Below are positions 2,470-3,263 of a stretch of DNA of 18,553 nucleotides, in pieces. The stretch lies in IMG/VR virus record IMGVR_UViG_2541047776_000006; one strand, given 5' to 3'. A program made the translations under genes and the position numbers. The notes below the pieces were generated by a model. The model searched no databases, was not told the origin of the DNA, and was given only the letters and a program-made list of their open reading frames with translations. Each line of letters begins with the position of its first letter. Position 1 is the stretch's first letter. The DNA comes from a virus (lineage: Duplodnaviria > Heunggongvirae > Uroviricota > Caudoviricetes).

Positions 2470-2564
2470 AGTTTGCTCCTGCCATAACGTGAAGAAGCAA
2501 TGACCTGGTGGTCCGTGACTTCCCTACGCTGGCATTATCCAGATCAGGTGATACGGGTATTTCT
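2470..2564 (-). ncRNA. TPP (thi-box) riboswitch of thiM, 3' portion only (P4/P5 arm, 3' strand of P1, expression platform)
   Basis: The minus strand reads ...GAAAUACCCGUAUCACCUGAUCUGGAUAAUGCCAGCGUAGGGAAGUCACGGACCACCAGGUCAUUGCUUCUUCACGUUAUGGCAGGAGCAAACU-AUG. This matches the 3' two-thirds of the E. coli thiM TPP aptamer plus expression platform as I recall it. The 5' part (GACUCGGGGUGCCCUUCU...GGCUGAGA) is absent here and replaced by AT-rich island sequence. Confidence 0.75.
2551..2564. repeat. Left copy of the 14-bp att core / target-site duplication (ATACGGGTATTTCT)
   Basis: Exact 14-bp match to 12336-12349. Flanking bases differ on the island side, as expected for an att junction. Confidence 0.7.
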
Positions 2565-2623
2565 TACTAATTTTTGTTATCAGTTGATAATTAATAATTT
2601 TTTAAGCATACAAGAATTAAAAA

Positions 2624-2697
2624 CCTCAAAAATGACCACACAACTGACCACACATTTCGTTGAAGCCCTACGAACAACGACGAACAATAACAAACAA
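2624..2697. repeat. Sub-terminal imperfect direct repeat, left copy; contains tandem TGACCACACA-AC-TGACCACACA
   Basis: About 75 bp (CCTCAAAAATGACCACACAACTGACCACACATTTCGTTGAAG...ACGAACAACGACGAACA...) closely similar to 12175-12250 in the same orientation, with an identical 25-bp stretch. Candidate integrase arm-type sites. Confidence 0.7.
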
Positions 2698-3263
2698 AAG
2701 GGAAATTTGCTGGCAGTTTTGCTTAACCGTTATCATTTTTCTGCTATCCGCTATGAAGCTGGTGGATGATCACTGATAACTCGTATGGGAATCCCCATAT
2801 CGGCATCATGCCCATGCCATAACAAAAACCCCATATTCGTGGGTTTTCTGTGTTGTGGCTATTCTGCCGTTGCCGTGCTGGTGGATATTTCCGGTATGTG
2901 GCTCACCATATCGGCATCAGGCCCACCAGCGTGAAGCGTTTTTCATTTTTCGCGGGTATAAAAAATCGATGGGGCTGGCAGTCCGGAAGACGTCAGGGTA
3001 CAGAGATTTGACCCGCCCCTCCCTGTGCATGGGCACAATAAGTAACCGAAGGCGGAATTCCGCCCTCGGTGCTCACATATGAGAAACGATATTTCTTACA
3101 CCGATACCCTTTATTTGGGTATCGCGAGTAAGCCCCAAAATCTGGGTGTTACTCTTACTACCCAAACTACGGGTAGTTTCCGTAGTTTCATAGTCGAGTT
3201 GCAGATCTGCAACTCGCCACCAGTTGCTAAGTGCATTTTTGCACTTTCGGTAATATCAACCAG

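Follow-up and report, generated by a model that had tools for sequence, protein, structure and literature searches.

A phage satellite of the EcCI224 type lies within the thiM riboswitch aptamer of Escherichia coli and probably leaves thiMD blind to thiamine pyrophosphate

Translation of thiM in Escherichia coli is governed by a thiamine pyrophosphate (TPP) riboswitch in its leader. As long as TPP is absent, an anti-sequestering stem keeps the ribosome-binding site (RBS) exposed. TPP steadies the aptamer and its P1 stem, so that a stem sequestering the RBS and the AUG can form, and the translational block in turn leaves a Rho utilization (rut) site at codons 20-34 open to Rho; the substitution G40A alone stops ligand binding (Bastet et al. 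2017, PMC5499598). Here, we describe a DNA stretch of 18,553 nucleotides (IMG/VR record IMGVR_UViG_2541047776_000006; this whole stretch is referred to as the window) in which a phage-inducible chromosomal island (PICI) is found inserted inside this aptamer, at a 14-bp attachment (att) core.

Element and att core have both been catalogued before. The PICI EcCI224 of strain Ecol_224 (10.6 kb) is listed with the att core AGAAATACCCGTAT and the att gene 'frmR-thiM' (Fillol-Salom 2018, PMC6092414 Table S1), and the element in the window is of this type. The catalogue treats the site as intergenic; the word 'riboswitch' is absent from the paper and its supplements, and thiM from its main text. Two other groups of site-specific elements are relevant for comparison. 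Islands that target tRNA genes (tDNA) carry their own copy of the gene end that they displace, by which a functional RNA gene is regenerated (PMC4383910). The dusA-specific integrases and the phenomena termed 'regulated gene integrity' and active lysogeny are described (PMC4482086 and PMC7192596) as site-specific insertions that alter or interrupt host expression and are exactly reversible by excision. Searchable literature on thiM or riboswitches together with integrase, attB or PICI yielded no report of an att core inside a riboswitch, and an att core that lies within a riboswitch aptamer and is not repaired on integration appears to be unreported there.

The DNA of the window belongs to an E. 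coli chromosome and shows 100% identity to a clinical isolate of sequence type (ST) 80 according to megablast and the RefSeq annotation of the identical record, with the gene order yegX-thiD-thiM, inserted island, rcnR-rcnA-rcnB-yehABC. The open reading frame (ORF) list and the RefSeq annotation place thiM (hydroxyethylthiazole kinase; 1681..2469, ATG at 2469-2467) and thiD (kinase of hydroxymethylpyrimidine and its phosphate, HMP/HMP-P; second gene of the thiMD operon; 884..1684) on the minus strand, and the thiM leader is therefore located at coordinates above 2469 and read from right to left. When positions 1-4200 were compared by megablast with 5,426 complete E. coli genomes, the match to island-free genomes stopped exactly at position 2564; nearly all genomes aligned only up to this point, and these have an annotated TPP riboswitch there. 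The empty site, present in ~5,350 of these genomes, contains a single core copy and reads in K-12 (locus L002), in thiM sense, ...GGGGTGCCCTTCTGCGTGAAGGCTG-AGAAATACCCGTAT-CACCTGATCTGG..., with GGCTG before and CACCTG after the core. The corresponding thiM-proximal junction in the window is ...AAAAATTAGTA-AGAAATACCCGTAT-CACCTGATCTGG... (TTAGTA before the core) and the far, int-side junction, with the core at 12349..12336, is ...GTGAAGGCTG-AGAAATACCCGTAT-TTTCTCATTTAGTG... (TTTCTCATTT after the core). Comparison with the K-12 empty site thus delimits an island of 9,785 bp flanked by a perfect (14/14) direct repeat, of which one copy adjoins thiM at 2551..2564 (ATACGGGTATTTCT on the plus strand) and the other adjoins int at 12336..12349. 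Direct repeats at both ends that match one empty-site copy identify the insertion as an integrative element.

The integrase gene is present in 76 of the 5,426 genomes (1.4%), and in every one of these 76 the adjacent rcnR-side junction and 5' half-aptamer are covered as well; the thiM-side junction is present in 75. The latter is base-identical in 12 aligned carriers from unrelated lineages and, as the same junction recurs in 75-76 complete genomes and these 12 are independent of each other, an assembly artefact is ruled out. Cargo at the thiM site varies, from complete capsid-forming PICIs (cf-PICIs) in SMS-3-5 and an O157:H7 strain to other cargo in TUM9812. An integrase gene adjoining att and at least three cargo types at one and the same site are characteristic of a site-specific element.

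The core is situated within the aptamer proper. It covers what we take to be A41-U54 in the usual thiM numbering, a placement obtained by counting from the crystallised aptamer sequence, in which G40-A41-G42-A43 form the GAGA of CUGAGA. The thiM promoter and nucleotides 1-40 are now found 9.8 kb from thiM, next to rcnR and pointing into int. Two partial aptamers result, both on the minus strand. The displaced 5' part (12336..12385, delimited by comparison with K-12) comprises the 5' strand of P1, P2, P3, J3-2 and the 3' strand of P2 and reaches 20.1 bits with the Rfam model RF00059. The part retained by thiM (2513..2564), from A41 onward, comprises the 3' part of J3-2, the 3' strand of P2, P4/P5 and the 3' strand of P1; it reaches 33.4 bits, with non-canonical pairs at 3/5 P1 and 5/5 P3 positions. 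The intact K-12 aptamer scores 71.2 bits. Membership of the family requires at least 54.3 bits, the gathering threshold, with P1 to P5 formed, and neither half attains this; a search with Rfam at the gathering threshold gave no match in the whole window. The pyrimidine-sensor helix, made up of P2, J3-2 with G40, and P3, is no longer contiguous with the pyrophosphate-sensor helix (P4/P5), as the break separates G40 from A41.

In the thiM leader, unrelated AT-rich DNA (21% GC at 2565-2640) has taken the place of nucleotides 1-40, which include G40, the whole of P3 and the 5' strands of both P1 and P2. The base before A41 in the chimera, at position 40, is an A, and island DNA lies farther upstream. 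Since nucleotides 1-39 are foreign, position 40 is an A and G40A is known to stop binding, we strongly infer from the sequence that TPP sensing has been lost from the chimeric thiM leader. Reconstruction of surrogate P1, P2 or P3 elements by island DNA was considered and rejected in view of the mismatches in the Rfam alignment. A first-pass annotation had proposed that thiMD is cut off from its native promoter and the 5' half of the aptamer, that AT-rich island DNA takes the place of P2/P3 and that TPP control can be predicted to be lost. The end of homology at 2564 and the 14-bp repeat bear out the first of these proposals, the low GC content and the missing Rfam match agree with the second, and the split aptamer with its exchange of G40 for A makes the third a sound prediction. 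It had also held that thiM keeps only P4/P5, the 3' strand of P1 and the Shine-Dalgarno (SD) region. All of these parts are present, but 'only' is too restrictive: duplication of the 14-bp core leaves A41-U54 in the thiM-side RNA as well, and with it the 3' portion of J3-2 and the P2 3' strand. As for the displaced half, its P3 loop (window 12355-12365; L002 5571-5581) reads UUUG in the window and in a Salmonella locus (L007) and UGCG in K-12, a natural polymorphism in a non-conserved loop.

Downstream of the retained aptamer part, the native thiM expression platform (2470..2512, minus strand) is identical in sequence to the K-12 leader. According to the published thiM model (PMC5499598), it contains the SD sequence AGGAG (2480-2476, minus strand) and the sequestering or anti-SD strand UUGCUUCU (2500-2493, minus strand). 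Fold states were judged by partition-function base-pair probabilities and not by the energies of enforced hairpins, with seven assumed 5' ends for the chimera. The minimum free energy folds of the native apo leader and the chimeric leaders contain the same long helix, in which GCCAGCGUAGGGAAG... is paired with ...CUUCUUCACGUUAUGGC. In the native apo leader, the anti-sequestering (ON) helix has a probability of 0.79 and the SD-sequestering hairpin one of 0.13; in the chimera, over all seven 5' ends, these values are 0.89-1.00 and at most 0.02. The SD is unpaired with a probability of 0.51 in short chimeric leaders versus 0.46 in the native one. The chimeric leader is thus predicted to default to the anti-sequestering helix that permits translation. 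This folding would narrow the ligand-independent lock on translation, which had been anticipated in the first-pass annotation, to the ON state. A RefSeq 'hypothetical protein' of 89 amino acids (2500-2769, plus strand), which starts antisense in the thiM leader and crosses the att junction into the island arm, can occur in no strain but a carrier, and the call is probably spurious.

The island ends share a sub-terminal direct repeat of 70 nt (2628..2697 versus 12181..12250, 86% identical), the first copy of which starts, as noted before, about 155 bp upstream of the thiM ATG (measured as ~155-160 nt). Copy 1 holds a tandem of TGTGTGGTCA(G/T) at 2654..2632, and copy 2 a tandem of TGTGTGGTCAG (12207..12185), located 37 nt before the start codon of int. 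There are four copies of the 11-mer TGTGTGGTCAG in the window, against 0.23 expected, arranged as one tandem pair per island end and always on the same strand; in Salmonella relatives, the corresponding place is occupied by a tandem of the variant TGTGAGGTCAG. Because of these tandem 11-mers at both ends, their Salmonella equivalent and the Arm-DNA-bind_3 domain of the integrase, the repeat can, by analogy, be interpreted as the arm-type sites of the integrase in the P and P' arms of attP. The conserved attP arm (~225 bp, 2565..2790) is nearly invariant among islands that differ in cargo and integrase (alignments A1 and A2). The same is seen among the 12 carriers, but the 50 bp closest to the core are variable. 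This variable segment belongs to an AT-rich spacer (2565..2631, minus strand, 21% GC) between the core and the arm sites, which stands in place of P1/P2/P3 and contains an integration host factor (IHF)-like sequence, TATCAACTGATAA. The predicted attP junction of the excised circle, AGTAAGAAATACCCGTATTTTCT, had no match in IMG/VR and metagenome contigs, which is absence of evidence only, since the searches were for exact matches.

Given this arrangement, the question arises from where thiMD is transcribed. The candidate for the native promoter, TTTACA-17-TACCAT (12411..12439, minus strand), was recovered by a consensus scan and reaches 10.5 bits with a position weight matrix (PWM), ranking 10th among 185,220 configurations in the window. 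Between 2300 and 4300, the same consensus scan gave no sigma-70-like site on either strand (3.1 expected). The best thiM-directed PWM site in 2470-2850, TTGTGT-16-TTTAAT, overlaps the repeat and reaches 5.2 bits, which is background (about 440 sites in the window are equal or better) for a matrix that covers sigma-70 only and uses approximate frequencies. The best thiM-directed promoter-like matches, though weak, are in the spacer 2565-2631. A variant of the SMS-3-5 type carries TTTATG-18-TATTAT (7.9 bits) in its AT-rich spacer, outside the repeat; this site is missing from the variant in the window. An internal thiD promoter inside thiM was rejected (best PWM score 4.9 bits). Two terminator-like hairpins separate the island genes from thiM: a weak bidirectional one with U tracts on both strands (2815..2845; -12.2 kcal/mol on the minus strand) and a strong one (3045..3070, minus strand; 11-bp stem with 8 GC pairs, -24.1 kcal/mol, z = -4.15) located between the packaging genes and thiM. 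Read-through from the native promoter over the whole 9.8-kb island was likewise rejected, as an opposing gene and both hairpins intervene.

Some of the other promoter-like sites are worth mentioning. On the strand facing away from thiM, the repeat contains TTGAAG-17-AACAAT (2660-2688, plus strand, 9.1 bits), and a second site with this orientation is TTGCTG-18-TATCAT (2707-2736, plus strand, 8.6 bits). Both are followed by a plus-strand terminator-like hairpin at 2830-2843 and, judging from this order of signals, could give rise to a short island-end transcript, antisense to read-through towards thiM. At the other end, there is no terminator-like site between the displaced native promoter or 5' half-aptamer and the int start at 12148. 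The integrase gene also has a candidate promoter of its own, TTGTTT-16-TAAATT (12294..12267, minus strand, 8.5 bits), and together with the tandem arm sites before the start codon this suggests autoregulation of int. E. coli strains differ in the region of the thiM promoter: in O157:H7 F8092B (L003 19400-21700), ~2.2 kb with three small ORFs separates rcnR from the aptamer, and the DNA directly upstream of the aptamer is unlike that of K-12.

These data show that the P4-type tyrosine integrase of the island recombines at the 14-bp core AGAAATACCCGTAT inside the thiM TPP aptamer, and that integration takes place without regeneration of the target: the promoter and nucleotides 1-40 stay by rcnR, and thiMD keeps A41 onward and the expression platform. 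On this basis, the following consequences may be proposed. As the chimeric leader would be unable to bind TPP, both the translational repression that depends on TPP and the Rho-dependent termination in early thiM that is coupled to it would be abolished. By default, the 3' aptamer strand that is retained, GCCAGCGUAGGGAAG..., would pair with the anti-SD region, giving the published ON helix, and transcripts that reach thiM should therefore be translated constitutively. Transcription of thiMD would originate solely from weak promoters in the spacer or from leakage past the two hairpins, which is the weakest step of the proposal. The committed prediction is a low, TPP-blind expression of thiMD, with normal control restored by precise excision. 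That an EcCI224-type PICI splits the thiM riboswitch and leaves thiMD expressed at such a low and TPP-blind level is in our opinion the best explanation overall, and we regard it as fairly probable.

Several observations weigh against it. The scans gave no credible promoter, which would agree equally well with a silent thiMD, and the promoter negative is itself limited by the sigma-70 matrix used. The ON lock is an equilibrium thermodynamic prediction; with the assumed 5' ends 2616 and 2700, incidental pairing leaves the SD unpaired with a probability of only 0.19-0.26. The assignment of the arm sites rests on analogy. Finally, the annotation of thiM and thiD as intact in all 12 carriers sampled (from ST80, ST131, O157:H7, enterotoxigenic E. 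coli and environmental SMS-3-5 lineages) speaks for the explanation, but these intact ORFs may reflect no more than recent acquisition. The latter is also part of the rival explanation that deserves most attention, although we consider it somewhat unlikely: a polar knock-out, in which the insertion silences thiMD. ThiD is required for de novo thiamine synthesis, and E. coli in the gut is able to import thiamine; carriers would then be unable to phosphorylate HMP-P and would rely on imported thiamine, their ORFs being intact because the acquisitions are recent. The displacement of the native promoter over 9.8 kb, the lack of a promoter-like site towards thiM or internally for thiD, the two terminator-like hairpins and the opposing HEPN-domain gene, which breaks the unidirectional transcription of the island, all speak for silencing, and the patchy distribution of the island (1.4% of genomes) suggests repeated recent gains. 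Intact genes in 12/12 carriers from unrelated lineages disfavour it weakly; furthermore, very little enzyme suffices for a vitamin-level flux, weak initiation is common in AT-rich foreign DNA, and the predicted fold of the leader is open to translation.

If thiMD is expressed, some source of transcription is needed, and the first-pass annotation had put forward the sub-terminal repeat (there 2624-2697) as a candidate donor promoter, which would make it an outward-facing island promoter driving constitutive transcription of thiMD. The repeat is indeed located in AT-rich DNA upstream of thiM and is highly conserved among carriers. This idea has nevertheless become quite improbable: the region 2300-4300 has no promoter-like site, the best overlapping thiM-directed score is at background level (5.2 versus 10.5 bits for the native promoter), and the repeat scores better on the strand that faces away from thiM. 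No sigma-70 promoter with 16-18 bp spacing, facing thiM and above background, was thus found in the repeat, and a donor promoter at this place is not supported. Arm binding by the integrase would account for its conservation and for the copy with tandem 11-mers at the int end, and the better candidate of other island variants (7.9 bits) sits in the spacer. A last alternative is that TPP control has been kept, either by a different fold of the chimera or by assembly in trans of the 5' half in the int leader with the 3' half in the thiM leader. Both halves exist in one cell and are probably transcribed, and the duplicated core puts the 3' strand of P2 on each of them. Against this stand the 33.4 bits of the chimera with its mismatched P1 and P3 positions, the lack of any island sequence that mimics P2/P3, and the implausibility, at cellular RNA concentrations, that a bimolecular aptamer would be held together by a P1 of ~5-6 bp; such retained control is extremely improbable.

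The comparison with described systems may now be made. EcCI224 and the island in the window have the same att core and the same location, between 'frmR' (which is rcnR) and thiM, with a base-identical thiM-side junction. The order int, DUF6387, alpA, icd, DUF4222, primase and, further on, DUF1441 TerS and a small ORF is also shared. EcCI224, at 10.6 kb, has an intact protease/capsid fusion gene, whereas the island in the window (9.8 kb) has a pseudogene and a HEPN gene on the opposite strand. The cf-PICIs that use this att site, in SMS-3-5 and O157:H7 F8092B, share the integrase (92-97% DNA identity), the core, the arms and the junctions; however, they are ~15 kb in size and have capsid, portal, protease, head-tail connector, HNH and TerS/TerL genes, which the island in the window does not have. 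With respect to the thiM TPP riboswitch (RF00059), the expression platform and nucleotides 41 to ~88 are unchanged and the same ON helix is predicted, but the chimeric transcript is devoid of nucleotides 1-40, neither half reaches the family threshold, and the leader should no longer work as a switch. The P4-type integrases of tRNA and tmRNA genes (Islander-type) have the same Arm-DNA-bind_3 and catalytic domains, are encoded next to att and likewise target a short conserved stretch of a structured RNA, with the crossover within RNA-coding sequence. In contrast to tDNA islands, just 14 bp are duplicated here, and neither half is restored. As in the dusA-type and active lysogeny systems, insertion affects the 5' end of a transcription unit of the host; unlike in these systems, a cis-regulatory aptamer in the 5' untranslated region is interrupted instead of a coding sequence. 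Another difference from the dusA type is that no replacement 5' end or promoter is recognised in the sequence of the island.

It is possible to speculate further about the biological meaning of this choice of site. EcCI224-type satellites could have selected the thiM aptamer as others have tRNA genes, because it is an invariant structured RNA, and the insertion could act as a reversible regulatory switch, by which the host thiM promoter is captured for int and the unidirectional island genes. This idea is attractive but, on balance, unlikely. If it were true, the integrated island would free thiMD from TPP feedback, either at a low constitutive level of translation or by silencing, and precise excision would restore the riboswitch. 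About 1.4% of sequenced E. coli and some Salmonella would then be natural riboswitch knock-outs with a measurable phenotype in thiamine metabolism. Apart from this speculation, a core that lies inside the aptamer and is not repaired on integration would, if borne out, provide a natural, recurrent and reversible riboswitch knock-out in about 76 of 5,426 complete E. coli genomes and in Salmonella, which could be used to gauge the worth of TPP feedback on thiMD in the wild. A tyrosine integrase would be seen to treat a cis-regulatory RNA like a tRNA gene, without regeneration of the target, and a host housekeeping promoter would be redirected into the integrase gene of a satellite. From a practical point of view, the thiM riboswitch of carrier strains will escape annotation pipelines, and TPP control of thiMD ought not to be taken for granted when the metabolism or regulation of these strains is modelled.

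The island itself (2565..12349, minus strand) is an EcCI224-like PICI satellite of 9,785 bp according to its RefSeq annotation and its Pfam and PHROG matches. In order, it contains int, DUF6387, alpA, an icd-like gene, DUF4222, a D5_N primase gene, iterons, a HEPN-domain gene, a truncated protease/capsid gene, a DUF1441 TerS gene and phrog_1561; all of these genes are on the thiM strand except the HEPN-domain gene. The tyrosine integrase gene (10928..12148, minus strand; Arm-DNA-bind_3 and Phage_integrase domains by Pfam/PHROG) starts 188 bp from the core. This content is that of the PICIs of Gram-negative bacteria as defined by Fillol-Salom 2018: int, alpA, pri-rep with adjacent iterons, packaging gene(s), a unidirectional organisation and a size of about 8-15 kb, in combination with a PICI-specific att site, the independently derived core being equal to the EcCI224 att core (PMC6092414 Table S1). 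It is not a cf-PICI, a type that has its own capsid, portal, head-tail connector and TerL, as just a frameshifted protease fragment and TerS are present. No tail or lysis genes are found in its RefSeq annotation, and a comparison of the whole island with GenBank phages gave only partial matches to TerS and primase, and no named record.

The protease/major-capsid fusion gene has been cut down to a frameshifted fragment of a ClpP-type protease (4286-4949), which suggests that this copy of the PICI may be defective. The place of the protease/capsid part of EcCI224 is taken by the HEPN-domain gene (5288-6001, plus strand) and an ORF of 77 amino acids (4967-5200). These may represent defence or toxin cargo; PADLOC, applied to the HEPN gene and neighbouring ORFs, matched no family. 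The primase gene is directly followed by clustered GGTGAACAG(T) iterons in both direct and inverted orientation (6150-6400), which probably constitute the replication origin of the satellite. A direct repeat of 32 nt, GTATGGGAATCCCCATATCGGCATCATGCCCA (2783-2814 and 2894-2925, 84% identical), is found in a non-coding stretch of ~700 bp between the packaging genes and the att arm, and is possibly a packaging or cos-related site.

Outside E. coli, related Salmonella integrases (69-74% identity) adjoin rcnB. The one Salmonella junction read (L007, with an integrase of 70% identity) is the same, ...CTGAGAAATACCCGTAT/TTTCTAATTTAGGG, with TTTCT after the core. Among GTDB species representatives, there were no confirmed loci of integrase relatives and no matches to the exact int-side junction. 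The closest paralogue of the integrase in E. coli (P0007, 67% identity) adjoins the gene for the small RNA McaS/IsrA (118 bits with Rfam) next to abgR (L009 2641-2736 and 3001-4230). The clade of this 67%-identity integrase may use another att site that is adjacent to an RNA gene.

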